From an uncultured Chloroflexota bacterium (GTDB taxonomy: Bacteria > Chloroflexota > Anaerolineae > Aggregatilineales > Phototrophicaceae): DNA of 64,000 bases. Every line of letters starts with the position of its first letter. Within the stretch, counting starts at the first letter, position 1. The translations under genes and the position numbers were made by a program. The notes beneath the pieces are model-generated. The model worked only from the letters and a program-made list of their open reading frames with translations. It did not search any database and was not told the origin of the DNA. Below, in pieces: positions 2,302-44,761 of the stretch. Location: assembly GCA_937974245.1 (NCBI GenBank), contig CALJKV010000064.1, forward strand, positions 23,543 to 87,542, given 5' to 3'.

Positions 2302-3663
2302 TCAGATTGTCTCATACGAGTGCCCCCACAGCGCCGCAGCGTCCGCCAGAATTGACTGTGTCCCGGCAATCAAAATCGTCCCCGTTGTGCCAACAAACTC
2401 CTTTGCCTGATCTACGGCTTCAACCAGGGTGGGCAGATAGCGGACATCCGGGTTATGTTCACGAGCGAGAGATGTCGCCGCCGACGAGTCCGGGAAGTGC
2501 AGAATCGGGTTGCGGGTGGTTTGTGTCAGGATGAGACGGTGACACGTTTTGCCCATAACGGCATACACACCGGGATAGTCTTTGTCATCCGGCACGGCCA
2601 CAATCCCGACGACTGGTGAGGCGAGATCATCCCGCACACTTTCGACAAATGCCGCTGCTGACTCAGCATTAATCGCGCCATCTATGAAAATGAGTGGTTT
2701 CTCCTGGAGTTTCTGGCAGCGCCCCGGCCAGGTGACATCGGCCAGCCCGGCGCGGATATGTTCCACATATTCCGGTGAACCGTGCGGAAGCCCTGCCAAC
2801 CGTCCGTGAATGTTGCCCGCCGCGATGACTGCCAGCGTAGCGTTTAACGCCTGATAACGCCCCCGCAGTGACAGCGTAACATCACCGTACCGACTCAAAT
2901 TAAGCCGGATTCCGTTATCCGCCGGGCCGGTGTATTGTGCGATTTCTCCCGGGGAAATCCAATTGAACTCGGCGTTTTGCATGTCCGCCTCGGTGCGCAG
3001 CATATCCAGCACTTCCTGCGGTTGCGACACACTATAGGCGTAACTGTAGGGCTTGATGATGCCTGCTTTATGCCAGGCAATACGGGCAAGCGTTGGCCCC
3101 AGATAGTCCGGGTGTTCCAGCATGATCGGCGTGAATAGTGAAAGTTTATTCGGCACCAGGGCGATATCATCAAAACGTCCGCCACGTCCGACTTCCACGA
3201 CTGCCACTGTGATTCCCTGCTCGTCAAACCATTGCAAGGCCACCGCCAGAAAAATCCCCTGTGGGCTGAAGTAGGTTATTTCCGGAAGCGATTCTTCAAT
3301 TTTGTCAATCTCAGGCGCGAGATGGGAGAGAATACGCAGGAAATCCGACTGGGGGATCATCTGGCCGTTGATGCGAATCCGTTCGCGCCAACTGACCAGG
3401 TGTGGGCTGGTCATCATCCCGACCCGATGGCCCAGGTGTTGCAGCAGCTTGGCGGTGATAACCGTCGTCGAACCCTTGCCTTTACTGCCGGTAACAACCG
3501 CGTACTCGCGGGGCGCTGCCAGCAGGTTATGTGCCAGCAGCAGGCGGGTCGTGGGGCTGGTGTTGCGACTGTGCTCGTCCAGCCCGCGATCCATACCGCG
3601 CAGTTTCCGCAGTGACCGGAAGATATAGGTGATGGCCTGTTCTTCTGTCGTAAAACGCAGCAT
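2302..3663 (-). CDS. Mur ligase family protein, folylpolyglutamate synthase (FolC)-like
   Basis: P-loop VTGSKGKGSTT followed by MTSPHL, and later VVEVGRGGRFD and HKAGIIKP. This order of motifs is typical of FolC/Mur ligases. Confidence 0.75.
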   Translation of the reverse strand: MLRFTTEEQAITYIFRSLRKLRGMDRGLDEHSRNTSPTTRLLLAHNLLAAPREYAVVTGSKGKGSTTVITAKLLQHLGHRVGMMTSPHLVSWRERIRINGQMIPQSDFLRILSHLAPEIDKIEESLPEITYFSPQGIFLAVALQWFDEQGITVAVVEVGRGGRFDDIALVPNKLSLFTPIMLEHPDYLGPTLARIAWHKAGIIKPYSYAYSVSQPQEVLDMLRTEADMQNAEFNWISPGEIAQYTGPADNGIRLNLSRYGDVTLSLRGRYQALNATLAVIAAGNIHGRLAGLPHGSPEYVEHIRAGLADVTWPGRCQKLQEKPLIFIDGAINAESAAAFVESVRDDLASPVVGIVAVPDDKDYPGVYAVMGKTCHRLILTQTTRNPILHFPDSSAATSLAREHNPDVRYLPTLVEAVDQAKEFVGTTGTILIAGTQSILADAAALWGHSYETI

Positions 3664-3692
3664 ATTTATGCCCCTTACGGTAGTAACACCGG

Positions 3693-5576
3693 CTAGCGCA
3701 GTTCGAGGTGGGCGGCGGCTAACTGCCCCCAGATCGAAGTCGGGTCGTCACTCCATAAGGTGAAATAGGCCTGACGCGCATCGTCACGGGTACCCATCAG
3801 ATCGTAGCTGAAGGCCTGTAAGAAACGCGCTGAAGAATCGAGCGGCACGCCGGGGTTTTCCTGCATCAGGTTGTCCAGCTGGCCCAGTACCGAGCCAGGG
3901 GCGTTCGTATCCAGCAGCATCGGCCATGAGCCTGGCGGTGGCATGAGTTTCACAGGGCGTTCGGACACCCGTTGGAAAGAGGACGGTGGGTCAATAGCTT
4001 CGGCTGTATAGGTCTCGCGGGAAAGTGGGGCGAACGCCCACCAGTAGTCGTAGCCATCGAATATCAGGCGAACCGCCTGCCGGTCAAACTGGCCGACTGC
4101 GGAGAGTGTCACCACATCACCTACAATGAAGCCTCGCATCTCCAACTGGTCACGGACCGGCAAATCGCGGCGCAGTGGGGCCTGTGTGAACTGGCGGGCC
4201 AGCACCTCATCTACCTTACAGACCCCGTACAGGGTTGCGTGTTGCAGGGCAGCACAGATTGTCAGTGGTGTTGTATTGGATTGGGCGGCGACTTCCTGGA
4301 AGGCGGCAACCTGCCCGGCCAACCATGACCCCGGTTCCGCCGTTCCCGCCAGTCGTTCAACCTGACCGAGCGCCAGGTCGGCCCGACCTTCCAGCACACG
4401 CAGCAGCGCGACCGTCATCGCGGCCCGGTCTATCGCGGCCCGGTCATTTACGGTAGCCGTTTGGATTAATTCTTCAATCGTGCTGACAGCGTCCTCAACC
4501 GGTAGTTCAAAAAATGGTTCGGCCTGATACAGCCGGCAGCCTGTTGAATCCTGTAAGCGAAACTCACCCGGTTCGGCGCTGGGACGGAAGAAGTTAAATG
4601 TCCACGCCCAGGTGACGTTTCGTTCTCCCAGGCAGCCCCACTCTGGTGATTCAATCTGGTATTCGAGTACGGTGAAACTGCTGCCCTCACGCGGCCATTC
4701 GACCAGTTCACCGACCCGGATCGTCTGCCCTGGCAGGACCAGGCTGGTGATGGCCTGACCGCGCCAGCCGAAAACCCGGTATTCCCGGTTGACGCTACCC
4801 GCATAGTTTACGGTCAGCACGAATTCTTCCAGGCGATCATCATCCACATCGCCCAATCGTTCGAGATTAATCTGTTCAATCGCGTTGAAAGGTGCCGCCG
4901 GAACCCCTTCCGCACCATTCAGGACAGTAAAGTTGGTTCCTTGCTGGCGGGCAGGCATGTAGTCATCGTACAGAACAGCATCGGCTGTTGTAGCATCTGC
5001 CGGGTAGCGGATATGCACCAGCGCGTCCCGCGTCTCCGTGCCTGCCAGATTGAAAGGCATTATTGTCAGGGAAAAATCGGCGGCGGTGACGGTGTTAAAG
5101 ACTTCAAACGACGCCCCGGATTCGCTTAACAGCGCGGCTATAAACGGGCGCACTACTCCACGCATATCTACCATTCCGCGCGGCGCGGCCAGCATCGCCC
5201 GGAGAAGTTGCTCGCGTTGTTCTGGTCGGCGCGGCGCATTCGGGAAACGCTCGGCCAGTTCAAGTTGTAACAGACGAATGACCCGTCCGCGTTCGCTTTC
5301 CCCGGCAGCCAACCGCCGCACTTGTTCCAGCAGCACGTTCACGAGAGCCATCTCGTCCCAGCGACGCAGCGCATAACGCTCCTGGGGGGCAGACGGCACG
5401 GCAATCACCGGGCTGAGCAGTGGCTGTGGCGTGTTGGTAGCAAAGGCCAGCGGCGGCGGTGGAGGTGTATTTGTCGTAAATCCAGGTGGGTTTTGCTGGG
5501 CCGTAATGGGCATGGCAGCGGCCAGCAGCAGAATGGCGACCAGGCATAACCATCCAAACAAATACCGGAAGCGCAT
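3693..5576 (-). CDS. secreted hypothetical protein (627 aa)
   Basis: N-terminal signal-like hydrophobic segment MRFRYLFGWLCLVAILLLAAAMPITAQ, followed by a Pro/Thr-rich stretch. No catalytic motif recognised. Confidence 0.6.
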   Translation of the reverse strand: MRFRYLFGWLCLVAILLLAAAMPITAQQNPPGFTTNTPPPPPLAFATNTPQPLLSPVIAVPSAPQERYALRRWDEMALVNVLLEQVRRLAAGESERGRVIRLLQLELAERFPNAPRRPEQREQLLRAMLAAPRGMVDMRGVVRPFIAALLSESGASFEVFNTVTAADFSLTIMPFNLAGTETRDALVHIRYPADATTADAVLYDDYMPARQQGTNFTVLNGAEGVPAAPFNAIEQINLERLGDVDDDRLEEFVLTVNYAGSVNREYRVFGWRGQAITSLVLPGQTIRVGELVEWPREGSSFTVLEYQIESPEWGCLGERNVTWAWTFNFFRPSAEPGEFRLQDSTGCRLYQAEPFFELPVEDAVSTIEELIQTATVNDRAAIDRAAMTVALLRVLEGRADLALGQVERLAGTAEPGSWLAGQVAAFQEVAAQSNTTPLTICAALQHATLYGVCKVDEVLARQFTQAPLRRDLPVRDQLEMRGFIVGDVVTLSAVGQFDRQAVRLIFDGYDYWWAFAPLSRETYTAEAIDPPSSFQRVSERPVKLMPPPGSWPMLLDTNAPGSVLGQLDNLMQENPGVPLDSSARFLQAFSYDLMGTRDDARQAYFTLWSDDPTSIWGQLAAAHLELR

Positions 5577-6224: not shown

Positions 6225-6882
6225 CCGTAAATCAATATTGGTATTTTGTTTGTCCGTCGTCTCCGCACCTGGAAATCCTTTAAGCGTGGTGCGAACATTA
6301 TCGCACGGAAGTGTTGTGGTGCAGGTTAATCATTACAATATACCTCAAAATTAGCAGAGATTGTTGAAGTTAGCTGACCACAAACTTCATTGTAGCAAAT
6401 TTTCCAGCAAGTGATGAGAGATAGTACCAATGATTAATATGTTCATTGTATCATTCTTTGGAGGACTAACCACAAAATCGGGCACAAAGTTAGAAAATAC
6501 AACCTTTCTCAGCCTGCTCCGTCACATTGATAGATGATACTAAAGATGTTTTACAGCTATGGATAGCGGGCTTCAAGCCCTGCGCTTCCCTCCAACAATC
6601 GGTGATTGTCGCTTCAAACGCTCCATTGGATTATGACCAGCGGGAACTGTTTTCTCATAGGGTGTTTATATTCATCTTATTGACCTCTGATGCTTTGCCC
6701 GTTATTATCGAATTGTGTCGTATTTAAGCAACAGTTACCTACCCCTGTTTTTCTCCTGAATCCTGTTTGTGGGAAAAGTAGTGTGTTTTGACGAGCGTGG
6801 ATTATAATCTGGGTATCGTAGAGCTACGATAGAAAGGAAAAAGGCGCATCTACCGGCAGACCGGTTTTGGCCGCCGTTTCTC

Positions 6883-23463: not shown

Positions 23464-23603
23464 AGACAAGTCACGAGACGAAAGTGAGAAATGCCGGGTA
23501 GAAATATGGCAAATTGGGGCAGTCGTGTGTGGCTGCCCCTCAAGTCACTATCTGTTCGCAGTGGGCGGCGGCGTCTCCCACAAGTTGGACATTGATTGGG
23601 CCT

Positions 23604-28267: not shown

Positions 28268-28577
28268 GACTTGTCTCCGGTAGTGATTCTAAAAACGGGC
28301 GAATCATACCGCAAAAGATGGCAGATGTTAAGCGGGTAACGGAACATGCGTTACCCAACAGGTAAAGAGTGTCTGGCATGAACCGAGTTATGCAACCCCC
28401 AGGGTTTGGGGAATTTGAATACCACAGCAAATAAGCTAAGATAAGCGGGTAATACACACAACGCGAATTAATATGCAAATCATTCGCGGTTGGCGAACTT
28501 GAGCATCGTCTTTTAATCACAACCTAAGAGTTCGTTTCTGATTCTCCCTTGATTGCGCTAATTGAATTTTAGAGGAG

Positions 28578-29441
28578 ATGGGACATATGGAAACCCAGAT
28601 TATTGTCGCGCTGATCTCGTCCTGCCTCGGCGGTGTAATTGTGGCAGTCGTGAATCATCTGCTCACCCGCAGACACGGCGAGGTGGAAGTCCAGAAAATA
28701 ATAGCGGAAACCAAGCATATTGAGACAATTACGAAAAACATGCTTGAGGAGGCTGAGCGCATACGAGAAGAAAGTTCAAAGGAACTGGAAAAGGTGCATG
28801 ATGAGATTTCCCTGGCGACACAAACAATCAGCCAGGTGACTACCTTCAAGAATTATAAAGACGCCTTTGGAGAGATGACGCAGTTTATCATCAACTATCT
28901 GGAAACCTGTAAAAAGAACAACGAACACGCCCCAACCGTTGATCTAAAACTCATTGCCGTTGCAATGACATTTTCCTGGGAGCATTTTATCAGCACCGAT
29001 CTAATCGAAATTATCAATGATTATCCAGCGGCATCTTTTAACATCAGCATCGCATTCGTTCATCATCATTATCTGCGGGTGCGCAATGTTGGGTCCACAA
29101 CCGGTATCAACTGGCCGGACATCTGCGAAAAACGCCTGAAGGATGTGCAGGAGTTTGAGAGAGACTGCAAGGAATCCTTTGGTAACCGTGTGACGTTTGA
29201 CTACAAGACGTTTCATAACCTGCCACACTGGCACGGCTGGCTGGTCAACAATTCCCAACTTTACCTGGGACGCACAGACTGGACATTCGAAAATCACACA
29301 CACAAACTGAGGGTCGGCCAGAACCTGTATCGAAGCTTTGACGATACAAATGAACAGGGTGAACAGCGAATCGAGCTATTCAAGAGCTGGCACCGGTACT
29401 ATTTTGAATACGAACCGTCATTTGAGGAGTATGCCGGTTAG
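28578..29441 (+). CDS. membrane-anchored hypothetical protein (287 aa), ORFan-like
   Basis: N-terminal TM helix, a coiled-coil-like charged segment, then a His/Trp-rich C-terminal domain. Visibly lower GC than its neighbours, and has its own terminator. Confidence 0.55.
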   Translation: MGHMETQIIVALISSCLGGVIVAVVNHLLTRRHGEVEVQKIIAETKHIETITKNMLEEAERIREESSKELEKVHDEISLATQTISQVTTFKNYKDAFGEMTQFIINYLETCKKNNEHAPTVDLKLIAVAMTFSWEHFISTDLIEIINDYPAASFNISIAFVHHHYLRVRNVGSTTGINWPDICEKRLKDVQEFERDCKESFGNRVTFDYKTFHNLPHWHGWLVNNSQLYLGRTDWTFENHTHKLRVGQNLYRSFDDTNEQGEQRIELFKSWHRYYFEYEPSFEEYAG

Positions 29442-29474
29442 CAATTGGCGGATGTCCCAACGCGAAGCATTACC

Positions 29475-32119: not shown

Positions 32120-33679
32120 ATGCCAGAACCAGCCGCGATCCACGAGAAGCCCTTAGCAACACCACCGCCAGATCATAAACCGGAGACAATCCATATTTTG
32201 ATCACCCAATGCCTGCAAAACGCCTTTTTCCTGGCTGAAAAAGGCCGCTTGTGCTTACCGGAATTGACCGTTAAACAAATGCTCGTTGGTGCCAATTCCG
32301 ATACGGAAGATACATCCCCGGACCCGAATCGCCGCATCTATCCGAAAGACAAACTGCAAAAGGGTCCCTTGTATACATTTCTGGATACACTGATTAGCAA
32401 TGTTTCTAAGGATCGCGAACTATATGTGCTGCACTTACGGGATTGGCATACGCCCTCACCGCGCTATGATGCTGAACGGCGGCTCTATGGTGGACATTGT
32501 GAAGCGGGCACCTGGGAGGCCGAACCACTGGCCGGCTACGAAAAATTCCTGATGCCCTGGGGGAACGACAAAGACCAGGCACAGTTAGCACTATCCTTAA
32601 ATGGCTATCGCCAGACCAACGAAAATGGCGGAAAAATCATTTACTATGATGTACGTTCCGATTCGGTGTTTGATTTCAAGGAGCCGGTTGCTTCCGAACT
32701 TTACGAAGTCTATCAGAGGGCTTTGGCGCAGCGTAAGGAACAAGGGAACAGAGCGGCTAAAATTGATGTGGACGAACAGTGCGGCGATTATTATGCCGAT
32801 ACTTTTCTGGAAGCTATTCTGGATCAGGTGATTAAGGATAAACAACGGAAAAACAGACGCGCAGGCCGCGAAACTTTAGTCTATGTTACGGTGATTGGTG
32901 TTTATACCGACATTAAAATAAGGACGTTAATCAACGGCCTTCGCGCCCGTTATGAAACTGATGGGTTGTTGGTTTCCGATGTGTTGACCGCTTCACCGGA
33001 TATTGAGCGTTCGCTGGCGGCTTATGACTTTTTCGATAAGGTTCTGAACGTTGAAGTGGTTCACAGTCTGACGGAACTACTGCGCCCAATGTTGCCTAAT
33101 CAAGATGTGATGGTTGATGAAAGTATCATCAAGGGGCTGCCAAATTTCCGAGATTACAAGACCTTTTTCCTGGATAAACAGACGGTCCTGGCCTCGCAAG
33201 ATAACAAACTGCTGGATTACCTGGAATTGACCCAAAAACGCAGCAGTGAAGTCTATACGCAGATTTACAAAGCAAACTGGTGGTTATTATGGATGGGGCG
33301 TCTCTTTCTGTTTGTCGCATTGCTCCTGGTGATTCTTCAGGTGGGCGTGAAAGAAGTTGTGATACCAACCGAGGTTTGGGTGCTGACAGGCGGTTTGTCC
33401 ATTGCCCAATTGCTGACGAGTTTCTTTCTGATCCCCATGGCGCAAATGCGGAATAATGTCAATGCACTGGTACGGCTGCAAAACTACCTGGAAACCTACA
33501 GCACTATATCGTCGCTACTGCGCTTCCATATGACACGCGCCAATCAGTTGAATCCGCAGGATACTGCGCGGTCTACCGAGGAGTTGACCTTAGTCGAAAA
33601 GCAAATGACCATCATCCAAAACGCGGCTCAGAAAATGTCGGATACCTTTAGCGATATTCCGGTCAAAGATCCGAATTAA
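32120..33679 (+). CDS. isochorismatase/nicotinamidase-fold protein with two C-terminal TM helices (519 aa)
   Basis: By-eye alignment to PncA gives three matches: IHILITQCLQNAFF (compare LLLVDLQNDF), RDWHTPSP...GGHCEAGTWEAEPL (compare QDWHP...WPDHCV...GA) and VIGVYTDIKI (compare MGLATDYCV). The catalytic Asp and Cys positions appear to be Cys and Lys. TM helices lie at about residues 386-409 and 419-441. GGGGGA RBS. Confidence 0.6.
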   Translation: MPEPAAIHEKPLATPPPDHKPETIHILITQCLQNAFFLAEKGRLCLPELTVKQMLVGANSDTEDTSPDPNRRIYPKDKLQKGPLYTFLDTLISNVSKDRELYVLHLRDWHTPSPRYDAERRLYGGHCEAGTWEAEPLAGYEKFLMPWGNDKDQAQLALSLNGYRQTNENGGKIIYYDVRSDSVFDFKEPVASELYEVYQRALAQRKEQGNRAAKIDVDEQCGDYYADTFLEAILDQVIKDKQRKNRRAGRETLVYVTVIGVYTDIKIRTLINGLRARYETDGLLVSDVLTASPDIERSLAAYDFFDKVLNVEVVHSLTELLRPMLPNQDVMVDESIIKGLPNFRDYKTFFLDKQTVLASQDNKLLDYLELTQKRSSEVYTQIYKANWWLLWMGRLFLFVALLLVILQVGVKEVVIPTEVWVLTGGLSIAQLLTSFFLIPMAQMRNNVNALVRLQNYLETYSTISSLLRFHMTRANQLNPQDTARSTEELTLVEKQMTIIQNAAQKMSDTFSDIPVKDPN

Positions 33680-33744
33680 CCGATCAGATTGCTATAATCT
33701 GGCCTGAACTATGAGCAGGGAACACAGTGAGAGGGAAGCAGCCT

Positions 33745-34866
33745 ATGGCTAACTATCGTATCGTCGTTCGACGCGGCCCCCAACCGAATGCGACCTACGA
33801 TCTGGATCAGGACGTCATCACGCTGGGACGTGACATCACCAATGAAATCCTCATCAATGACGTAGAGGTTTCGCGCCACCACATGCGTTTTTCGCGCAGC
33901 CTCAACGGCTATATGGTGGAAGACCTGGGCAGCACCAACGGCACATTCATTAATGGGCGGCGGCTGACGGGCGCTCAGGAAATCCATTCGGGCGATATGA
34001 TCGGGTTGGGTGAGACGGTGACGTTGCAGGTGGAAGTTCTGGAATATGCTCGGCCAACCACGCCGGTGCGCCGGATGGCAGCGGATTCACCGGAACTTTC
34101 GCAGGAGACGCTTTCGGCGGATGCGATATCACAGGCAGGGTATACGCCTGCCCCCAGCATCCCTCCGGCAAGAGCCTCCGGGGAGGCGCTGCGTATCTTC
34201 ATCAGCTACCGGAAAACGAACCGGAACCGGGTGGATGCTATTGCCCAGGTGTTGCATGACATGGGGCATACTGTCACGTTTGATCAGGATATTCTTCAGG
34301 GGCAGCACTGGTGGAACGTGATTATTGAGCAGATTCACCAGGCCGACCTGATTATCGCCATGCTTTCCCCGGCGTATCTCCAGTCTGAGCCTTGCCACCT
34401 GGAATACACTTACGCAGCGGCGTTGAACAAGCGGGTGCTGCCGGTACAGATTGAACCGATCAATTACCGCCAGATGCCGGTGGAATTGCAGAAAATTCAG
34501 TTGGTGGATTTTAAGCAGCAGAACAATGGCGCGATTGACCGCCTCAGCACGGCCCTATCGATTCTGCCACCGGCCATGCCGCTGCCCGCTGTGATGCCGC
34601 GTGTGCCAGAAGCGCCTATCCCGGAGATCAGCAAACTCAAGGATGAGATTATCAACCTGACGATTCAGATCAGCGCTGACCGGCAGCGGTTGATTGCGAT
34701 GCGGCTTTACGAGATGATGCGCGGCCAGAACGCTGAAGATGCGACGATGGCGCGGGAACTGCTGGGGGCTATGCTCAAACGCCCGGACATTACATTTTCA
34801 ACCGGGCAGATGATCCAGGACTGGCTGAATGCCGGACGCCCCTGGTGGAAGCGCCTGGGTGGGTAA
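33745..34866 (+). CDS. FHA-TIR fusion protein
   Basis: N-terminal FHA domain (ITLGRD...VSRHHMRF...VEDLGSTNGTFINGRRL...GDMIGLG). Central TIR-like domain (RIFISYRKTN...GHTVTFDQD...ADLIIAMLSPAYLQSEPCHLEY). Start set to the ATG at 33745 with GAGGGAAG upstream. Lies 65 nt after the preceding gene. Confidence 0.8.
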   Translation: MANYRIVVRRGPQPNATYDLDQDVITLGRDITNEILINDVEVSRHHMRFSRSLNGYMVEDLGSTNGTFINGRRLTGAQEIHSGDMIGLGETVTLQVEVLEYARPTTPVRRMAADSPELSQETLSADAISQAGYTPAPSIPPARASGEALRIFISYRKTNRNRVDAIAQVLHDMGHTVTFDQDILQGQHWWNVIIEQIHQADLIIAMLSPAYLQSEPCHLEYTYAAALNKRVLPVQIEPINYRQMPVELQKIQLVDFKQQNNGAIDRLSTALSILPPAMPLPAVMPRVPEAPIPEISKLKDEIINLTIQISADRQRLIAMRLYEMMRGQNAEDATMARELLGAMLKRPDITFSTGQMIQDWLNAGRPWWKRLGG

Positions 34867-35200
34867 GGAAGTCGCCGCCGTATAAATGCTCCCGCCGCAG
34901 CGATCAATCTTCCGGCCAGGAAACCAGGGAAACAGTGGACATACTGAACAGGTGTGTTCAGTTAGTTATAGGCACTGGTTCTTCAATACCAGCACCGCGT
35001 CATATTCATCCGGCTCACTATCGAGTCGTGGCGTTGGCTAGGAGATTTTAAGAGATTGAGATAAAATACAATTCTAGATTATGCAATCTATTAGTATTTT
35101 CTTCGAAGGCATACTTCTTTTCCTTGTACGAAAAGTACGCAAGTTGAGTTGCGTAAGTCTTGATAGTATTCGTAAAAATTTATGAAAGGGAGATTATTTG

Positions 35201-35590
35201 ATGCCTACCTGTGATATTTGCGGCGCAGAAGTCACTTTGAAAGATTACTGCAAGATAGGAATTATGCCTAATCCGATCCAACCCAAAGGCTGGTTTCTAC
35301 TTGTAAGTAATGAATCTGGAGAGAGCGAAAAAGTATCCGATACAAAACCCGCTGCCACCGAGATTGCCAAAAAACTAGGTGAGATATTTTCTAGGCAGGC
35401 AAGTATACGTGAAAGTAAAACCGAGACAGGAGGTCCAGCAAACCTTCCAGGTATGTTTGTCTCCTTGCACGGAAAACTCTATTTCTGCCACGACTGCGTT
35501 GCAGCGAATGGGGGGAAAATAACAAAGACAGGTGTTGCTTTTGTTAAGGGGAAAGCGAAGAAAAAAGGCAAGTCATGGTGGCCTTTTTAG
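35201..35590 (+). CDS. small Cys-pair (zinc-ribbon-like) protein with a Lys-rich tail
   Basis: CDIC near the N-terminus and CHDC near residue 98, with a KGKAKKKGKSWW tail. AAAGGGAG RBS. Embedded in an AT-rich islet. Confidence 0.5.
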   Translation: MPTCDICGAEVTLKDYCKIGIMPNPIQPKGWFLLVSNESGESEKVSDTKPAATEIAKKLGEIFSRQASIRESKTETGGPANLPGMFVSLHGKLYFCHDCVAANGGKITKTGVAFVKGKAKKKGKSWWPF

Positions 35591-36811: not shown

Positions 36812-37315
36812 ATGCCTGCGATATTGACGAATGACCGCTTTCGTATGGAAGTATCCGTCGCCGGGTACGAATTTCCTGATGAAGGCGCGGATATTTACGA
36901 TGCGAACTGGCTGCTGATCCGGGTGCGCTTAAAGCTGGTTTATGGCGCATGGACATGGCAGGTCGAGGATGCCGGGGCGCTCACCTGGGAATTGGCTGAT
37001 GCCGTGCGGTGGTTGCGGGCGCTGGCAGCGGATGAGCATGTCGAACAGGAATGGTGCGGGTTCTCCGAGCCGGACATCCGTTTTGAGACGATTCGGAATA
37101 CAGAAGGGGAACTGGTAGGGCTCACCATTCAGTTAATGGATGAATTCCAGCCGCCGACTAAAGTGTTGATGCCGCGAGAGAACAACATCGTCACGCTGCG
37201 TTTCCACACGCCGCCCGATGTGCTGTTGGCGCTGGCGGATCGACTGGAAAAACAGCTCGTGAAATTCCCGCAGCGCGGCGAACGCCCGGCAATATCCCAG
37301 GCACAGCACCCGTAA
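36812..37315 (+). CDS. hypothetical protein (167 aa)
   Basis: Clean ORF with AGGAGG upstream. The N-terminal pattern F.MEV..YEFP......YDANWLLIRV faintly recalls immunity-protein-like families, but I cannot assign it. Confidence 0.55.
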   Translation: MPAILTNDRFRMEVSVAGYEFPDEGADIYDANWLLIRVRLKLVYGAWTWQVEDAGALTWELADAVRWLRALAADEHVEQEWCGFSEPDIRFETIRNTEGELVGLTIQLMDEFQPPTKVLMPRENNIVTLRFHTPPDVLLALADRLEKQLVKFPQRGERPAISQAQHP

Positions 37316-37345: not shown

Positions 37346-39706
37346 ATGCGCCTGGTGACCATCGCGCTCGGCTGGACGGCGGGCATTTTGCTGGCGGCGA
37401 ATTCCACCAACCGCCCCACATTGATCTGGTTCGGACTGGTGATTCTGGCAGGCACTGCCCTGTGGTTGGCGTGGCCGGATGTCCCCTGGCGGCGCGGGAC
37501 GCTGGCGCTGCTGGCTTTTACGCTGGGTGGCCTGCGCTTTTCGTTTGTCCCCGTGACCAGTGATATTGCCAACTATAACAACCTGGGCGGCCTGACAATT
37601 GAAGGTGTTGTTGCCGCTGAACCGGATACCCGCGATGATCGGATTCAATTCCAGCTTGCTGCTGAAATGATCACACGGGGTGGGCAGACCGTCCCAACAG
37701 ATGGCCTGGTGCTGGTGCAAGCGCCCCGCGTGACAGCGGTGCGCTATGGAGATCGGGTAACGGCCACGGGACTCCTGAGTCTCCCCGCTGAGTTTGATAC
37801 ATTTTCGTATGCCGACTACCTGGGGCGAAGCGGCGTCTTCAGCATCATGCGGAATGCGGCGGTGGAGACTGTCTCCGGCGGTCATGGCAATCCAATCACC
37901 ATGGCGCTGCTTGACCTGAAAACGCAGGCCGCCGGTTTGATCGCCCATAGTCTGCCGGAACCAGGGGCTGGACTGCTCACCGGCATTCTTCTGGGGGACG
38001 AAAGTGGTATCGCGCCGGAGGTGGCCGATTCCTTCAGCAAAGTGGGCGCGTCGCACATCATTGCCATCAGCGGGTTTAATATGGCGGTCGTCAGCGGCGT
38101 GCTGCTGGGTATGCTGGAACGCTTCCGCGCCTCGCGCCGATGGAGCGCGATCATTGCCGTGAGCGTGCTGGTCGCGTATACGCTGTTTGTGGGGGCGAAC
38201 GCCGCGGTGGTGCGAGCGGCCATTATGAGCAGTATGCTGGTGATCGGCAGCCTGCTACGCCGCAAGACCTATGTTCCGGCGTCGCTGGCCTTCGTCGCCA
38301 TCCTTATGTCGCTGCAAAACCCTACAGTCCTCTGGGACATCAGTTTTCAGTTGAGTTTTTTCGCTACCTTAGGGCTGGCGTTGTTTGTAGACCCGATTTC
38401 GCGTTGGTTTAATGGCCTGTTGGTGCGGGGGTTGGGTCGCGGCGCGGCGACCCGCGTGGGTGATTTTCTGGCTGAACCGCTGGTGGTTACATTGGCGGCT
38501 CAGGTAACAACCCTGCCGCTAATTGTGCTGTACTTCGGACGGCTGTCGCTGGTATCGCTGATCGTGAACCTGCTGGTCATCCCAGCACAGTCTTACTTAT
38601 TCATCTTGGGACTGTTGGCGACCCTTATCGCTTTTCTCGTGCCGCCGCTGGCGCAAATCCTGTACTGGATGACGCTGGTATTGCTGGCATGGACCATTGG
38701 CGTCGTGCGCCTTTTCGCTCAGATGCCTTTTGCTGATGTGGAATTTCATGTTGACCCGCGATTGATCGCGCTATTTTTTCTGATAATGATAGGAGGGGCG
38801 CTGATGCACGCCACGAAACCAACCAGGGCGCGGCGACTGGCCCGGATGCTGCGCCAGCGGGCTGTTGTGACAACGGCGGCGCTGGTATCGCTGGCAATCG
38901 CGCTGCTGATGGTGGTGGCAGCACTTAGCCGACCGGATGGTCAATTGCATGTCTGGTTGCTGGATATGGGACACAGTAACGCCGTGCTGGTACAGACCCC
39001 CGGTGGGGCGCATCTACTGATTGATGGCGGGCATTTTCCTTCGCGGTTGCTCACGGCGCTGGGTGACCGTCTGCCATTCAACGACCTGGAAATTGACGTG
39101 ATGGTTGTCACCCAGCCCGATGAGGCCGATTACGGCGCTCTCCCGGCGGTGCTGGCGCGCTACGATGTGGGCGTTGTGCTGACGAATGGGCAGCCGAATC
39201 TCAGCCCAGCGTTCCAGGAGTTGGAGGCAAAACTCGCCACTCGTGAGGTTGTGACGGTTCGTGCCGGGTATACGCTGGAAACCAGTGATGGCGTGCTGCT
39301 GGAAGTCCTGCATCCGCAGACGCAGCCCGAACTGGGGGACAGCCTAGATGATTCGGCACTGGTGCTGCGCTTGATATATGGGGATGTGTCGTTCCTCATC
39401 CCGGGCGATCTGAGCCGGGAGGGGCAGGCGGTGCTGCTCGAATCCGGGGAGTGGCCGCTGGCGACGGTCTTGCAGCTTCCCCGGCATGGCGCGGTTCGTT
39501 CATTGGATGAAGCCTTTCTCAGTGCAGTACAGCCGCAGGTCGTTGTGCTGCAAAATGACCCGGCTAACCGGCGCGGTGACCCGGACGGCGACACGCTCGC
39601 CCTGCTGGGGGATACGCTGCTGTTCCGTACCGACGATGAGCGTAACAGATCACACACATTGCATCTGTATACAGACGGCAGCGAACTGTGGGTGGTGAAC
39701 GAGTGA
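37346..39706 (+). CDS. comEC: DNA internalization-related competence protein ComEC/Rec2 (with C-terminal metallo-beta-lactamase domain)
   Basis: N-terminal OB-like region, a competence-domain polytopic membrane core (GASHIIAISGFNMAVV) and a C-terminal MBL-like domain (LLDMGHSNAVLVQTPGG...LIDGG). Confidence 0.85.
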   Translation: MRLVTIALGWTAGILLAANSTNRPTLIWFGLVILAGTALWLAWPDVPWRRGTLALLAFTLGGLRFSFVPVTSDIANYNNLGGLTIEGVVAAEPDTRDDRIQFQLAAEMITRGGQTVPTDGLVLVQAPRVTAVRYGDRVTATGLLSLPAEFDTFSYADYLGRSGVFSIMRNAAVETVSGGHGNPITMALLDLKTQAAGLIAHSLPEPGAGLLTGILLGDESGIAPEVADSFSKVGASHIIAISGFNMAVVSGVLLGMLERFRASRRWSAIIAVSVLVAYTLFVGANAAVVRAAIMSSMLVIGSLLRRKTYVPASLAFVAILMSLQNPTVLWDISFQLSFFATLGLALFVDPISRWFNGLLVRGLGRGAATRVGDFLAEPLVVTLAAQVTTLPLIVLYFGRLSLVSLIVNLLVIPAQSYLFILGLLATLIAFLVPPLAQILYWMTLVLLAWTIGVVRLFAQMPFADVEFHVDPRLIALFFLIMIGGALMHATKPTRARRLARMLRQRAVVTTAALVSLAIALLMVVAALSRPDGQLHVWLLDMGHSNAVLVQTPGGAHLLIDGGHFPSRLLTALGDRLPFNDLEIDVMVVTQPDEADYGALPAVLARYDVGVVLTNGQPNLSPAFQELEAKLATREVVTVRAGYTLETSDGVLLEVLHPQTQPELGDSLDDSALVLRLIYGDVSFLIPGDLSREGQAVLLESGEWPLATVLQLPRHGAVRSLDEAFLSAVQPQVVVLQNDPANRRGDPDGDTLALLGDTLLFRTDDERNRSHTLHLYTDGSELWVVNE

Positions 39707-40869
39707 CCCCACGATTGTTTATCGCTTCCGGCATTTTTCACCCGGAATCGGGCGGCCCGGCGACATATCTCTATGAACTGCTGCCGCAACTCCAACAGCG
39801 AGGCTGGGACATTCAGGCGCTCTCGTATGGTTCTGGCGTGGTGGATGCCTACCCGTACCCACTGCACCGCATCCCGCGCCGGGCGCTTCCGCTGCGCCAG
39901 CTGGATTATGCTATGGCTGCCCGCCCGCTGCTGGCGTGGGCTGATGTAGCATATATCCATACATTAGGGCTGCCGCTAATTGGTCGCCGGGCGCCACGTA
40001 TTCTCAAAATCGTCGGAGATCAGGCCTGGGAGCGTTCGGTGCGTAGAGGTTGGATAGCGCCCACTACTGACATTGACGCATTCCAGACGACCCGCTATGG
40101 TCTGATTGTCAGCACCCAGCAGTCCGCCCGTTCCCGTGAAGTGCGTGGCATGGATGGTGTGGTGGTCCCTAGTGCATACCTCAAGCAGATGGTGGTGGGG
40201 TGGGGCGTTGCGCCGGAAAAAGTGCATGTCATCTATAATGCGCTACCACCGGAAGAGAGAGCGAGAGATTCAAACCCCTTATCCGCAACTACTCAATCTA
40301 CTATTTCGCAGGCTGCTGCCCGCGCCGAATTTGGGTTGGGCGATACGCCTCTACTGCTGACAGCTGCCCGACTGACTCACTGGAAAGGTATCAACCACTT
40401 GATTACCGCTCTCTCACGGCTGCCGGATGCCCATCTGCTGGTGGCGGGGGATGGCGAGATGCGCCCGGCGCTTGAAGCCCAGGCGGGGCGGTTGGGCGTA
40501 GCAGAGAGAGTGACATTCCTGGGGCGTGTGCCGCGTGACCGGATGCCGCTCTATATGAAAGCCGCCGATTACCTGACACTGTATTCCGGCTACGAAGGGT
40601 TATCCCACACATTGCTAGAAAGTCTGCGGGCGGGGACTCCGGTCATCGCCAGCGATAAGGGCGGTAATCCCGAAGTGGTACAACACGGCGTCAACGGCTT
40701 GCTCGTGCCGTATGTGGATGTAGACGCGCTGACCGAGGTACTGCGGGAGGCATTCCAGCCGGGTAAACGGGCGGCACTGGCGGCCAACACCGAGGTGGGT
40801 ATGGAACGTTTCGATTTTGCCACTATGGTCGCGCAGGTGGACGCGCTGCTGCAGGGGTACTTAGCCTGA
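39703..40869 (+). CDS. glycosyltransferase family 4 (GT-B)
   Basis: PESGGPATY near the N-terminus and a C-terminal EGLSHTLLESLRAGTPVIASDKGGNPEVV motif (E-x7-E type). The start is ambiguous: GTG at 39703 overlaps the comEC stop as GTGA, and GTG at 39688 is the alternative. Confidence 0.8.
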   Translation: MTPRLFIASGIFHPESGGPATYLYELLPQLQQRGWDIQALSYGSGVVDAYPYPLHRIPRRALPLRQLDYAMAARPLLAWADVAYIHTLGLPLIGRRAPRILKIVGDQAWERSVRRGWIAPTTDIDAFQTTRYGLIVSTQQSARSREVRGMDGVVVPSAYLKQMVVGWGVAPEKVHVIYNALPPEERARDSNPLSATTQSTISQAAARAEFGLGDTPLLLTAARLTHWKGINHLITALSRLPDAHLLVAGDGEMRPALEAQAGRLGVAERVTFLGRVPRDRMPLYMKAADYLTLYSGYEGLSHTLLESLRAGTPVIASDKGGNPEVVQHGVNGLLVPYVDVDALTEVLREAFQPGKRAALAANTEVGMERFDFATMVAQVDALLQGYLA

Positions 40870-42969
40870 TAGATCGCCGGGTCTCAGTCTTAACAGGAAC
40901 GGGTCATCGGGGTGCGGGTCAGCGTCAGGCACTTCCTGTACTTCGCCGGTGGTGGTGTTATCCGGGAGGTTTTCGTAGAGCGGTTGCGCCCCGGTGACTG
41001 CGACAGAGCGGCTTTGCCCGGTGGCGTGGATATAGGTATGTACCTGAATCGCGTGGTTGGCGTCAATATCAAAGGTAACATCCACCAGTTGTTTGCCAGG
41101 CGCATCTGGCGGAATGCCATCTACCACGAATTGACCTAGCGACGTATTGCCGCTTACGGTTTGCGATTCACCCTGGAGCACATGCAGGCGGGCGTGAGTC
41201 TGCTGATTCGCCATCGTGGTAAACACTTGCGTGCTCCGAAATGGAATGGTGGTGTTTTTCTCCAGAATGACGGCGATTTTGCCTTCAGCGGTTTCTATGC
41301 CCAGGCCATGCCCCATACCATCTAGCAACAGTATGTCTTTGAGCTGACCTTCCAGCACGGCGGCCTGGCGCGCCGCGCCCTGCGCTACAACGGTATCGGG
41401 GTCTACATCGCGCAGCGGCGTTTTCTTGAAGAATGCTGTCACTTTTTCGGTAACTCTGGGGGTGCGGGTTGCCAGGCCGACCAGCGCCAGATGAGTGATT
41501 CGATCAACTGACATTGTCCCTGATATAGAGGAAATGTATAGGGCGTCCTGGCAGCAGGCAATCGTCCTTTCGGTCAGGTGCGCGGTGAGTTCATCAAACT
41601 TCTCTCGTGTGAGTGGGACGCTCAGATGATAGGCACTGCTGCCATCCCCCGCGATAAACGGTACGTCTACACTGGTATGTTTCGCGGTTGAGAGTACTAT
41701 CTTGGCACGTTCGGCGGCCTCTCGCAGCCGCATCTGTGCCACCAGGTCGCCGCTCAGGTCTACGCCGGTCTGTGCATAGAACTCGGCGATACAGTAGTTG
41801 ACGATGGCCTCATCGTAGTCTAGTCCGCCCAGTTGGGTATCCCCGTTAACCGAGCGTACTTCATATACGCCATCTCCGATTTCCAGGATCGAAATATCGA
41901 ATGTGCCGCCGCCTAGATCGTAAACCGCGACCATGCCTTCTTTGATGCCGTAGCCAAAGCAGGCCGCCGTCGGTTCCGCCACGATCCTCAGTACTTCCAA
42001 CCCGGCCAGTTCGGCGGCCTTTGCCAGCACGTCATGCTGTGCTTCGTCAAAATAGGCAGGAGCAGTGAGTACGACGCCACTTACGGTCTCTCCCAGGTAG
42101 GCTTCAGCGTCATCCTTAAGGCTCTTGATGATGTAGGAAGCCAGGAGTGCCGGGTCATATAACTTGCCATCAACCGGCAGTGCTACGTCATAGCCAAACA
42201 GGCGCTTGACTTGCAGCACGCACCGTTCCGGGTATTGCAGCGCGAACTTCATGGCAGCTTCGCCCACCAGGATAGACCCATCCAGGCCGATGCCAACGGC
42301 GGAAGGAGTAGATGGATAACCGAGGCGGTTGTGGATCACAATTGGTTCGCCCTTTTCAAAAACGGCGCATAATGAATTCGTCGTGCCGAAATCCACACCA
42401 AAAAATCTCCCGGATGCCTGAGGAGTGACGTGCTGGTTACGAAGAACAGTCCGCCGCCGCTGTCTCCCGCCAGAGAGCGTTTTCATATAGCTGGCGGCCA
42501 AAGTCTTGCGGTGTTCCGTCCAGGCCATCTGTGCCGGCAGCCCATTGGGATTGGCCGGGGCGGCGTAGGCGTGAGATATCGGAATTAATACCGCGATAGC
42601 GTTCAGGCCGCGCTTGAGCCTGTCTTTTACAGCAGGAGTTGGTCCCCAACTGAAATCGGCGTACTGGTAACGGCTGATGTTATCAGGAATCTGCGTTTCT
42701 CGATCCAGCAGCACTGGAATAATCGGCTTGCTGGCCGTAATCGCCTCGGCAAATTCCCACTGGCACCACTCGGATGCCACTGACTTCGGGGAAAGGGCGT
42801 ACACAAAGGCATCGCACCCGCGTATCTCCTTGAGCAGGATGGCCTTCCAATCCTGGCCGGGGAGCAGTTCCATATCAAACCAGGGCACATGCTGCTCCGA
42901 GCGAAAAATATCAGCCAGAATGTCGATTTTATCGAGGTCGGCATGGGCGTAGCTAATGAAGAGTTTCAT
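40861..42969 (-). CDS. TIR domain - Hsp70 (DnaK-like) fusion protein (702 aa)
   Basis: Residues 1-110 are TIR-like: KLFISYAHAD...GCDAFVYALSPKSVASEWCQWEF...IIPVLL. From about residue 188 there is an Hsp70 nucleotide-binding domain: GVDFGTTNS, VLTAPAYFD, DLGGGTFDISIL, DTQLGG. A beta-sandwich SBD-like part follows: LGIETAEG...TIP...VLQGE...G.F...GIPP...VTFDIDAN. Confidence 0.8.
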   Translation of the reverse strand: MKLFISYAHADLDKIDILADIFRSEQHVPWFDMELLPGQDWKAILLKEIRGCDAFVYALSPKSVASEWCQWEFAEAITASKPIIPVLLDRETQIPDNISRYQYADFSWGPTPAVKDRLKRGLNAIAVLIPISHAYAAPANPNGLPAQMAWTEHRKTLAASYMKTLSGGRQRRRTVLRNQHVTPQASGRFFGVDFGTTNSLCAVFEKGEPIVIHNRLGYPSTPSAVGIGLDGSILVGEAAMKFALQYPERCVLQVKRLFGYDVALPVDGKLYDPALLASYIIKSLKDDAEAYLGETVSGVVLTAPAYFDEAQHDVLAKAAELAGLEVLRIVAEPTAACFGYGIKEGMVAVYDLGGGTFDISILEIGDGVYEVRSVNGDTQLGGLDYDEAIVNYCIAEFYAQTGVDLSGDLVAQMRLREAAERAKIVLSTAKHTSVDVPFIAGDGSSAYHLSVPLTREKFDELTAHLTERTIACCQDALYISSISGTMSVDRITHLALVGLATRTPRVTEKVTAFFKKTPLRDVDPDTVVAQGAARQAAVLEGQLKDILLLDGMGHGLGIETAEGKIAVILEKNTTIPFRSTQVFTTMANQQTHARLHVLQGESQTVSGNTSLGQFVVDGIPPDAPGKQLVDVTFDIDANHAIQVHTYIHATGQSRSVAVTGAQPLYENLPDNTTTGEVQEVPDADPHPDDPFLLRLRPGDLSG

Positions 42970-43029
42970 AACCCACTGTACGCTATTTTCCAGCGATTTT
43001 TACACTATAACGATTCCCATGGGTTTTGT

Positions 43030-43530
43030 CTACCAGCCTTGCGTACCGGGTTCGCCCTTGAACGGGCCAACAATCTCCGATGTGATCCACCCGCCATAGA
43101 AGTTCCCGGCCTGGGGCTGCACCCGCTCATCATCCAGATAACAGGCCTCGACCCGCCCCGGATAAAACGCCACGTAATCTTTGATGGCTTCATATCCGGG
43201 TGATGGGTTGGCATACGTCCAGGCGACATTGGCTGACTTCTGCCCGTTGACCCTCAGTGACCAGTAGTGGGCGACGCCCTTGAACTCGCAATAGCTGGTG
43301 TGTTGGGTGCGGTCCAGCCATTCTATACGAATGTCTTCTGACGGGATGTAATACGCCGGAGGATGGCTGGTTTCCAATATCCGAACGGCGTGGGTTGTTT
43401 CAGCCACAATCTCGCCATTGAAGATGACACGCACACGTCGGGTGGATGGTTCGATTCGCGGTGGGCGCGGGTAATCCCAGACGGATTCCTGGCCGGAGCC
43501 AGGTTGGATGGATCGTATGTTCCAAGACAT
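43030..43530 (-). CDS. DUF427 domain protein
   Basis: FNGEIVAETTHAVRILETSHPPAYYIP...YCEFKGVAHYW...VAFYP matches the DUF427 pattern. Confidence 0.75.
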   Translation of the reverse strand: MSWNIRSIQPGSGQESVWDYPRPPRIEPSTRRVRVIFNGEIVAETTHAVRILETSHPPAYYIPSEDIRIEWLDRTQHTSYCEFKGVAHYWSLRVNGQKSANVAWTYANPSPGYEAIKDYVAFYPGRVEACYLDDERVQPQAGNFYGGWITSEIVGPFKGEPGTQGW

Positions 43531-43579
43531 AGCTAAACCTCATACACTTCAAAAAATGGCAGCTATTGGTCTTTCACGC

Positions 43580-44761
43580 CTATAACAGGCCTTCGGGCAG
43601 GCGTCCAGCTTTGAAGGCTGTTACCTGTGAGGCTGTAAAGGGCGGGTCAAACAACTCGGGCGATTCATGGTAGCAGCGAAACAGGTCAGCGATGTAGTGC
43701 AGCCTATCCGACAGACGCGACCAATCCACCGCGCCCGTATCTCGTGTGCTGTCGGGTGTAGTGTCTATCTGGTCAAGCAGAGCACGCAGGTCAGGCAGTG
43801 TAATCTGCTGGAGTGACGCGGGAAACTCACCCGGCACATCATCCCCCAACCGCAGCAGGATACCGGGAAAACTGATCGTCATCATATACTCGGTAATCAC
43901 CAGATGCGCCCGCCGCCGCGCCTCAATCACGAGTGCATCCAGCACCTGGTCAAATGGATTGGGCCGGCGGAATAGTCGCAGCAAGAACAGCCGAATCCGC
44001 GCCCTCCAGCCCCGATTTGGAAAGAGCGCCTTGACAACCCGCAGCCGGAATGCCTGTTGATCTACGAATGCGGCATCCATTGCTCCCAGGATTTCGGGCT
44101 GCAAGCGAGTTTGCTCATGAAAACCGATCTCGATGTTAGCGAACAACAGCAGTTCTGACTGTGTTTTAGGATCGGTTTCAAATAAGGCTCGGTAGTAACT
44201 GGCGAAAGCCTGCCGGAGATAGTCTTGCCCACTGGGTGGGTCGCCAGGGCGTAGCTGGTCGCAGAAGTGCGCGATTTTTGCGGAGTCAAACGTCGCGTCA
44301 TGCAGACAGACCGCACAGAAACCGGCAAATACACGGGCGATTTCCTCATACACTTTCTTATTGCCACGCCCTACCGCGTCACTGGCGCGATCAAACGCTG
44401 CCAACGGATTCAACACTTCCGCCAGTGTTTCCTGAATCTCATCCTCCGGGAGAGGAGAGCCGAAAGCCCGGGTTGCTTCTGCGGCGTCCGGTAACGATTG
44501 TACTGACGGTGCGGCGCGGAGCAGATTTTCCAGAGTGCGGGCCAGGTCTTCTTTACGGATCGTTTGCCCAGCCTGTTTGGAAGCCCAGGTCGCGAACGTA
44601 CACCAATTAGCCTGGATACCCGTGCGGGCGGCTATGGCTGCGGCCAATTCGTGGTAACACTGGGTGATCTGCAAATTTCGGATTACCGGGTCAGTAATTG
44701 CGGTAATCTGGTCAACTTCGGCAACAGTGGGAACACGGTAAATTTCCGGAAGAGCAGTCAT
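43580..44761 (-). CDS. hypothetical protein (393 aa)
   Basis: Long clean ORF, helical, with an N-terminal motif [13 protein letters not shown]. Family not recognised with confidence. Confidence 0.6.

Follow-up and report, generated by a model that had tools for sequence, protein, structure and literature searches.

Bacterial immune proteins that contain TIR domains, such as SPARTA, Cat1, TIR-STING and Thoeris, join an NAD+-cleaving enzyme (NADase), which is gated by oligomerization, to a part that senses a ligand. We analyzed a 64,000-nucleotide stretch of DNA from an uncultured Chloroflexota bacterium of the class Anaerolineae (positions 23,543 to 87,542 of contig CALJKV010000064.1, assembly GCA_937974245.1; hereinafter, the window) in which a single gene encodes a TIR domain fused to an Hsp70 that lacks the helical lid. 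Most likely, the new point about this protein, denoted TIR-Hsp70, is that it appears to combine effector, switch and sensor in a putative immune protein with Hsp70 as both the switch and the sensor. The wider pattern to which it belongs, namely the attachment of different effectors to similar Hsp70s, is regarded here as the main result.

TIR-Hsp70 shares with the TIR-APAZ protein of SPARTA, Cat1, TIR-STING and the ThsB protein of Thoeris the TIR fold and the catalytic glutamate within a WxxxE motif, but the partner of its TIR domain is Hsp70, as opposed to Argonaute/APAZ, CARF/SAVED, STING or a separate ThsA, and it has no conserved partner gene. Assignment to Thoeris itself was rejected, given only weak ThsB-like TIR matches and no ThsA-type neighbor in the window or in seven related loci. 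With the STAND/NLR-like proteins (Avs, bNACHT, nSTAND), TIR-Hsp70 has in common the order of effector, nucleoside triphosphate (NTP)-driven switch and ligand-binding domain, as well as the set of effectors, whereas its switch would be an actin-fold ATPase instead of a P-loop one, and its sensor a beta-sandwich clamp instead of TPR, WD40 or LRR repeats. No P-loop STAND NTPase of the NACHT/NB-ARC type was found in the TIR-Hsp70 protein, and the resemblance is one of domain order and effector repertoire only.

Among Hsp70s, the nearest precedents come from two studies. According to the first, HSP70s take part in conflict systems predicted in multicellular prokaryotes, namely the DO-GTPase/tubulin/HSP70 and GAP1-N2 systems, in which NTP-dependent multimerization sets the threshold of effector activation (Kaur, Burroughs, Iyer, Aravind 2020, PMC7159879). 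Each of these systems comprises several genes, for GTPases, tubulin, GrpE and proteins fused to DnaJ, whereas TIR-Hsp70 is a single gene with a covalently fused effector; membership in these systems was rejected, there being no linked GTPase, tubulin, GAP1-N2, GrpE or DnaJ-fused gene among the window ORFs scanned or in the related loci. The second study reports oyster proteins that carry TRADD-N/DED domains and C-terminal HSP70 domains and have undergone lineage-specific expansion (Kaur et al. 2021, PMC8195603). The oyster fusions are eukaryotic and have N-terminal adaptors rather than a TIR enzyme; they can be seen as an animal parallel to the effector-Hsp70 fusion. Neither of these two papers reports a bacterial TIR-Hsp70 or effector-Hsp70 fusion. 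More generally, no TIR-Hsp70 or other bacterial effector-Hsp70 fusion is described in the full-text literature searched, a scope that left subscription journals and domain-architecture databases outside.

Domain architecture of the TIR-Hsp70 protein

TIR-Hsp70 is encoded by a single uninterrupted open reading frame (ORF) of 702 amino acids (aa) plus the stop codon, located at 40861..42969 on the minus strand (ATG at 42969, stop codon ending at 40861; all parts of the gene described below are on this strand). The translation matches Pfam TIR_2 and HSP70 and is identical to a protein in the public data (P0001). A first-pass annotation of the window had given these coordinates correctly, leaving the strand unstated, and every motif on which it had relied is present in the translation: LFISYAHAD (aa 3-11), DAFVYALSPKSVASEWCQWEF (aa 53-73) and IIPVLL (aa 83-88) in the TIR part, and DFGTTNS (aa 193-199), APAYFD, DLGGGTFD (aa 351-358) and DTQLGG in the Hsp70 part, with the basic linker that it had placed between them represented by RQRRR at aa 169-173.

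The N-terminal TIR domain (aa 1-125, 42595..42969), delineated by Pfam TIR_2, AlphaFold2 (AF2) and Foldseek, is followed by the end of the TIR module and the basic linker (aa 126-188, 42406..42594), a segment that is apparent in alignments of the fusions and of the TIR module family. Alignment to DnaK defines the rest of the conserved part, which consists of the nucleotide-binding domain (NBD; aa 189-545, 41335..42405), the interdomain linker DILLLD (aa 545-550, 41320..41337), equivalent to DVLLLD at DnaK 388-393, and the beta-sandwich of the substrate-binding domain (SBD-beta; aa 552-660, 40990..41316), for which identity and entropy comparisons were also made. A 42-aa tail (aa 661-702, 40864..40989), seen in the alignment of the fusions and in the AF2 model, takes the place of the lid. 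The full-length AF2 model, obtained with a 90-sequence alignment, has a mean predicted local distance difference test score (pLDDT) of 89.9 and a predicted template modeling score (pTM) of 0.80.

The TIR domain is predicted to be catalytic

The TIR_2 match covers aa 4-108 (E 3e-22; 79.8 bits, the cut-off being 28). In a separate AF2 model of aa 1-189 (pLDDT 84.9), the alternating strand-helix pattern of TIR domains is recovered, mostly with pLDDT >90 across the TIR, and a Foldseek search with this model retrieves the TIR domains of SPARTA TIR-APAZ, SARM1 and MyD88 with a probability of 1.00, so that the N-terminal domain models as a TIR, in agreement with the motif-based assignment made in the first pass. 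In the structural comparison, the NADase TIRs of SPARTA, at 26-27% identity, and of SARM1 rank highest, and the best sequence-profile match is Cat1.

The predicted catalytic glutamate is Glu72 (codon at 42754..42756), the last residue of the WxxxE motif (W68-C-Q-W-E72) within SEWCQWE. This residue is unchanged in all of the fusions aligned (15) and in the 21 TIR module family members compared, and its counterparts in the alignment are the glutamate of DWVHKE in Caenorhabditis elegans TIR-1/SARM1 and, in Cat1, that of WCWDE. Alignment of the fusion family shows Y7, W30, D32, G38, W41, S66, W68, C69, W71 and E72 to be invariant; of these, S66, C69 and E72 are likewise unchanged in the broader family of TIR modules, and W68 and W71 nearly so. 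By sequence and fold, this is a TIR domain of the catalytic type, and cleavage of NAD+ is predicted.

The first ~148 aa, comprising the TIR domain and a conserved PxxPxGxP[AS][QR] motif at the end of the module (aa 138-147), form a mobile unit that is also present in other proteins (P0121-P0156), either as a 149-aa stand-alone form or fused to TPR, a UvrD-like helicase, FGE-sulfatase, GRAM, KTSC, REC or FHA domains. In one Aggregatilineales metagenome-assembled genome (MAG; L011), three copies of the module, two of them in tandem, lie within 3.4 kb (3382-4236 and 6488-6751), which shows that the TIR family has expanded locally in Anaerolineae genomes.

A derived Hsp70 without a lid

The Hsp70 part matches Pfam HSP70 (E 4e-137) and aligns in one piece with residues 3-480 of the DnaK from Geobacillus kaustophilus (2v7y; E 2e-119). 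The Pfam match reaches only position 502 of the 599 in the profile, and homology ends at about residue 507 of Escherichia coli DnaK, SBD-beta being the equivalent of DnaK 394-507 (DnaK residue numbers throughout are those of E. coli DnaK, from a reference sequence checked at a few landmark residues). Since only ~40 mostly disordered residues follow this point, the protein has neither a lid nor an EEVD-type tail, as the first-pass annotation had maintained. Compared with canonical DnaK (2v7y, 4b9q), the sequences are 41-48% identical over NBD and SBD-beta and have the ATPase residues, the LLLD linker and the docking elements in common; TIR-Hsp70 differs in the added N-terminal TIR, the missing lid and C-terminal tail, the hypervariable cleft, and in being an accessory rather than a core gene.

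Conservation is distributed unevenly over the Hsp70 part. The ATPase residues D193, K255, E332, D351, T356 and D358 (D8, K70, E171, D194, T199 and D201 of DnaK) are invariant in 16 of 16 fusions, LLLD is retained in 15 of the 16, and the elements through which NBD and SBD dock onto each other (NTTIP, L454, DIDA) are comparatively conserved. Within the fusion clade, column entropy is 0.15 bits at catalytic positions, 1.26 at the NBD-SBD interface and 2.41 at the positions that contact the substrate (scored at DnaK 401-405, 426-429 and 433-438), compared to 0.66 for the substrate contacts of canonical DnaKs. Likewise, the mean pairwise identity in the TIR-Hsp70 clade is 46% for the NBD and 25% for SBD-beta, whereas canonical DnaKs show 62% and 63%, respectively.

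The protein also departs from DnaK at several positions of the NBD. R151 is replaced by histidine, K155 by alanine and N170 by alanine, positions that serve as allosteric or J-domain contacts in DnaK; N170 is replaced in every fusion, R167 and T173 are mostly kept, and K55 and R56 differ as well. The sequence LVGLATRTP (41458..41484) represents a derived adenosine motif, as its alignment with DnaK has VGLATR in place of VGGQTR, with leucine for G342. The scores against the DnaK equivalog models of NCBIfam fall below the cut-offs (499.9 bits against 648 and 493.2 against 822.55 for NF001413 / TIGR02350), and those against the NCBIfam HscA models do so too. Thus, judging from the sequence, the protein belongs to the Hsp70 superfamily (PF00012) but fails the tests for a DnaK ortholog. 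Identification as a DnaK ortholog was rejected on account of the sub-cut-off score, the absent lid, the replaced J contacts and the lack of a dnaJ/grpE context.

The full-length model superposes on the docked, ATP-state structures of DnaK (4b9q, 7ko2, 7kzu) with a root-mean-square deviation (rmsd) of 2.3-3.3 A, whereas no superposition is obtained with the undocked structures of the ADP state (rmsd ~24 A). It also matches, at ranks 25 and 27, two structures of lid-truncated BiP (7a4u and 7a4v), entries titled 'oligomeric state', in which the linker of one protomer presumably lies in the cleft of the next. Lid-truncated BiP is an engineered truncation of a chaperone, whereas TIR-Hsp70 is naturally lidless, and its oligomerization is proposed by analogy.

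Two short motifs flank the Hsp70 part. The linker, aa 126-188, is partly ordered in the AF2 model (pLDDT 43-77) and contains a hydrophobic patch of the [SA]Q.Y[LM] type with basic flanks that is common to close relatives (ASYMKTL, aa 159-165). Directly after SBD-beta, the clade shares the motif P[ILV][FY]E.[LP]P (PLYENLP, aa 663-669), a motif lacking in those proteins of the wider Hsp70 group that have no TIR; in the model, this region has pLDDT ~82-85 and short strand assignments, the remaining tail being disordered. Speculatively, ASYMKTL or PLYENLP might be intramolecular pseudo-substrates that occupy the cleft at rest.

Homologs and allelic variation

In addition to the identical protein, the public data contain another 14 proteins of the TIR+Hsp70 kind that are 39-55% identical to it, and a profile search of 1.84 billion representatives yielded additional fusions, so that more than 20 homologs from independent assemblies are available; tandem or duplicated Hsp70 gene calls among the long Hsp70 matches were left out. 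Among the matches listed, the hosts are Anaerolineae/Chloroflexota. A second allele, from another sample (L020), occupies apparently the same locus and differs at 36 residues. Over the whole gene, the ratio of nonsynonymous to synonymous substitution rates (dN/dS, Nei-Gojobori) between the two alleles is 0.09; taken by domain, it is 0.09 in the TIR, 0.05 in the NBD and 0.07 in SBD-beta. Four of the six allelic differences within SBD-beta fall in aa 584-594, the arch region, and include the equivalent of the arch residue A429. Positive selection between the two alleles was not seen in dN/dS of either the whole gene or the arch stretch.

These comparisons bear on whether the fusion is real. A chimeric assembly, a frameshifted gene pair or a decaying pseudogene could each produce an artefactual or non-functional fusion, the sources are all metagenome assemblies, and in one relative, P0178 (L012), which at first sight is a clade member without a TIR, the TIR lies upstream with a frameshift near its start; P0169, P0179 and P0012 are further members that apparently have no TIR. 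Against such an origin stand the same uninterrupted architecture in more than 20 independent assemblies, the second allele at the same locus with its dN/dS of 0.09, the confident AF2 model, and the catalytic residues of both the TIR and the Hsp70, which are unchanged down to ~38% sequence identity. An artefact can hardly be the explanation; for the gene in the window, assembly chimera, frameshift and pseudogene are all contradicted by the independent homologs and the L020 allele, and the reading of the gene as one continuous fusion, put forward in the first pass, holds.

Other effector-Hsp70 fusions

In neighbor-joining (NJ) trees of the Hsp70 part, which are distance-based, the core TIR-Hsp70 clade is monophyletic, with bootstrap support that reaches 100% for one set of taxa and 69-71% for a larger set. 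Six further TIR-Hsp70 proteins (P0171, P0183, P0186, P0187, P0192 and P0218) are scattered in the tree, contain unrelated TIRs and have DnaKs of the canonical type; by these sequence comparisons they are independent TIR-DnaK fusions, that is, a case of convergence. P0192 retains the full lid, and P0183 comes from a named isolate, Allocatelliglobosispora scoriae (WP_184831786.1). Some of these proteins have lost ATPase residues (E171A in P0171; K70P, E171A and T199V in P0186; E171D and T199A in P0192), and in these three lineages Hsp70 may be a nucleotide-independent binding module.

A survey of other N-terminal domains among the best 150 Hsp70 representatives identified caspase domains (P0233, P0260, P0289, P0297 and P0299), Ser/Thr kinases (P0222, P0240, P0252, P0255 and P0287), an HD-CE domain (P0259) and a PNP domain with a kinase (P0238). 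Furthermore, SIR2, nSTAND1 and Hsp70 are combined in a single metagenomic protein of 1297 aa with the architecture SIR2_2 - nSTAND1 - HEAT-like - Hsp70 (P0175; a fragmentary sequence, P0173, represents a close relative). Its Hsp70 is lidless, has a nearly canonical, DnaK-type SBD and is located at the C-terminal end, the position at which NLR-like proteins carry the sensor.

Three features, namely the VGL[AS]T[RK] signature, the loss of N170 and the missing lid, are found together in the core TIR clade, in P0269 (which also has a TIR), in the caspase proteins P0233 and P0260, in P0259 and P0238, and in P0175 and P0173; neither canonical DnaKs nor the TIR-DnaK fusions of independent origin have the signature. 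A constant ATPase and binding module that carries interchangeable effectors of the death type is typical of NLR/Avs-type immune proteins. We put forward, tentatively and at less than even confidence, an unrecognized family of immune receptors built on a J-independent, lidless Hsp70 lineage (marked by VGL[AS]T[RK] and N170 loss) with swappable death effectors (TIR, caspase, HD, PNP-kinase, SIR2-STAND), of which TIR-Hsp70 would be the most numerous branch recovered. In such a family, the peptide clamp would be the sensor of pathogen or danger, and the Hsp70 ATPase cycle would gate oligomerization.

A strain-variable locus

Comparison with related genomes indicates that TIR-Hsp70 is a single-gene accessory cassette. 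In two assemblies (L016 and L017), the 2,168 bp at 40862..43029, which comprise the ORF and 60 bp upstream of it, are replaced by 9 bp, the flanks being 89-92% identical; the site lies between the stop codon of a convergent GT4 glycosyltransferase gene and that of the DUF427 gene. A third assembly (L018) has the same gene order and, like the other two, keeps DUF427 and lacks TIR-Hsp70. In a further MAG of the same lineage (L015, GCA_020634135.1), which is collinear with the window over ~25 kb at 91-94% nucleotide identity, 93 bp replace 40862-43580, that is, both TIR-Hsp70 and DUF427. TIR-Hsp70 is thus a presence/absence polymorphism between genomes that are ~90% identical in DNA. The cassette has no direct or inverted repeats at its borders, and its GC content is 55.6%, close to the window mean of 55.2%; with no border repeats and native GC, insertion by a mobile element is unsupported. 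A phage origin is also unsupported, as no phage record covers at least 80% of the protein, the single IMG/VR match being to a distant TIR only.

The 60 bp upstream of the gene, which accompany it as part of the indel (42970..43029, minus strand), hold a sigma-70-like site, TAGACA-17-TATAGT at 43032-43004 on the minus strand, found in a promoter scan with 10 of 12 matches; the count of such sites in the upstream region is not above chance. At the other end, the 3' ends of TIR-Hsp70 and of the convergent glycosyltransferase gene (39688-40869, plus strand) overlap by 9 bp (40861-40869), and no terminator-like hairpin was found between the two genes.

The neighborhoods of seven relatives (six core-clade loci and the independent fusion P0192) have no gene in common with the locus in the window, and in a tblastn search of the window neighbor proteins against the related loci, TIR and FHA domains were the sole matches. 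The first pass had raised the question of whether DUF427 and a 393-aa protein are conserved partners: because L016-L018 keep DUF427 without TIR-Hsp70 and because the neighborhoods share no gene, neither is a partner. A tblastn search of the window and of L001-L011 found no J-domain, GrpE or second DnaK, the fusion genes being the only matches, and a chaperone operon was rejected on this basis; none of the 20 window neighbor ORFs scanned and none of the related loci contained GTPase, tubulin, GrpE or J-domain genes, and no SIR2, SLOG or Macro gene was found among the neighbors in the window or in the seven related loci. Defense-type neighbors are present in some loci, including a JetC remnant, a CBASS-type TIR effector, PIN7 with TIR-TPR, BrnT and PemK. 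The earlier contention that this is not a housekeeping chaperone is favored by the score below the DnaK cut-off, the strain-variable presence and the lack of DnaJ or GrpE nearby.

Proposed mechanism and its alternatives

We propose, with about an even chance of being right, that TIR-Hsp70 is a stand-alone, single-protein, NLR-like sensor-effector in conflict or immunity. The TIR would be the effector, an NAD+-cleaving enzyme that requires self-association; the NBD would be an ATP-driven switch, and the lidless, fast-evolving SBD-beta the ligand sensor. The view of Hsp70 as a sensor and regulator of the TIR had been offered in the first-pass annotation, and the comparison favors it: the ATPase residues, linker and docking elements are conserved, the cleft is hypervariable, and the same type of Hsp70 is found behind other effectors.

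A tentative cycle can be drawn, each individual step of which we hold less firmly than the sensor-effector reading as a whole. At rest, the protein would be bound to ATP with SBD-beta docked on the NBD, as in the docked AF2 model and consistent with the conserved interface and linker. An extended peptide, from a phage protein or from an unfolded or nascent foreign protein, would then enter the open cleft, and its binding would trigger ATP hydrolysis, presumably without a J-protein, in keeping with the loss of R151, K155 and N170. Undocking might be followed by clustering, either on a multivalent ligand or by self-association of linker into cleft, which would bring the TIRs together. The assembled TIRs would use up NAD+ and arrest the infected cell; depletion of NAD+ seems likelier than signaling because a ThsA-like receiver is never adjacent.

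Should this prove true, Hsp70, otherwise a helper in protein folding, would here have become an immune switch that controls whether the cell kills itself; a chaperone clamp that recognizes unfolded or extended foreign polypeptides would be a new principle of sensing; and NLR-like receptors would have a second NTPase chassis besides the STAND ATPases. Eukaryotic TIR-NLRs depend on Hsp70/Hsp90 chaperones, and this dependence, together with the oyster fusions of death domains to Hsp70, would provide a link to eukaryotes. The mechanism is open to the established toolbox of DnaK biochemistry, with the isolate A. scoriae as an entry point.

Several observations weigh against the sensor-effector proposal or the proposed family. 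The comparison of the two alleles indicates purifying selection, and even in the arch stretch dN/dS is just 0.30, from eight changes. Given the lack of mobile-element scars and the native GC content, deletion in the relatives is as possible as insertion in the window. Most neighborhoods, including that in the window, are of a housekeeping character rather than defense islands, and, weak TIR matches aside, PADLOC-DB 2.0 offers no model for the protein. The occurrence of the TIR module beside signaling-type domains (REC, FHA, GRAM, KTSC) would fit non-immune signaling equally well. The docked model is weak evidence because AF2 commonly returns the docked state of Hsp70s. Finally, NJ bootstrap support for the superclade of effector-associated Hsp70s is just 50%, so that common descent of the shared Hsp70 chassis rests mainly on the signature.

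The same protein might instead sense proteotoxic stress or the energy state of the cell, such that unfolded protein or a fall in ATP/ADP triggers the TIR, and lowered NAD+ or a nucleotide signal makes cells of a filamentous, multicellular bacterium go dormant or die altruistically. The intact Hsp70 ATPase, linker and docking interface are compatible with this function, the almost canonical SBD of the SIR2-STAND-Hsp70 relative appears suited to generic sensing of unfolded proteins, and the genomic context is mostly housekeeping. The hosts, Anaerolineae/Chloroflexota, are also compatible, regulated death systems having been tied to multicellular prokaryotes by Kaur et al. (PMC7159879). However, a sensor of this kind should keep the DnaK cleft, which is hypervariable in the TIR clade; strain-level presence or absence is unusual for a core stress pathway; and the effectors on this chassis (TIR, caspase, SIR2-STAND, HD, PNP) are those of the immune repertoire. 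We consider a stress or energy sensor unlikely.

Neighboring genes and other features of the window

As the first-pass annotation had noticed, there is a second TIR gene nearby: a 379-aa protein with FHA and TIR_2 domains is encoded at 33727-34866 on the plus strand, ~6 kb away. Its TIR is ~25-28% identical to that of TIR-Hsp70. The gene is conserved in L015, which lacks TIR-Hsp70, and hence is not an obligate partner.

This gene is relevant to another explanation, under which the TIR of TIR-Hsp70 is an adaptor that docks a dedicated Hsp70 onto other proteins with the TIR module (FHA-TIR, TIR-TPR and the 149-aa TIRs), so that Hsp70 would assemble, restrain or dismantle TIR signalosomes. Hsp70s do remodel oligomers, the ~148-aa module occurs in many architectures within the same lineages, and in addition to the FHA-TIR gene ~6 kb away, TIR-TPR and tandem TIR genes adjoin relatives of TIR-Hsp70. 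Yet the invariant catalytic glutamate and WxxxE motif point to an enzymatic activity, the supposed client FHA-TIR is kept where TIR-Hsp70 is missing and so does not need it, and there is no lid, J-protein or GrpE. The presence of the same type of Hsp70 on caspase, HD and SIR2-STAND proteins also fits an interchangeable effector better than a TIR-specific adaptor, and we find the adaptor function quite improbable.

Several other genes of the window were recorded in passing. Directly upstream of the FHA-TIR gene is an ORF of 519 aa (32120-33679, plus strand) that has no Pfam or NCBIfam match and is also conserved in L015. A WapI-like immunity gene (36812-37315, plus strand; PF24716, E 2e-21), kept in L015 and L016, is located directly upstream of comEC; no cognate toxin for the immunity protein was found among the genes scanned. 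Compared to L015, the window contains a specific insertion at 28343-29474 (1.1 kb against 11 bp), a second strain-variable site ~12 kb from the cassette, with an ORF of 287 aa (28578-29441) that shows only a faint YvbH_ext match. The segment 34876-35818 fails to align with its counterpart in L015 (944 bp compared to 550 bp) and holds an ORF of 130 aa (35198-35590) without a family match, the counterpart position in L015 being occupied by an 81-aa ORF.

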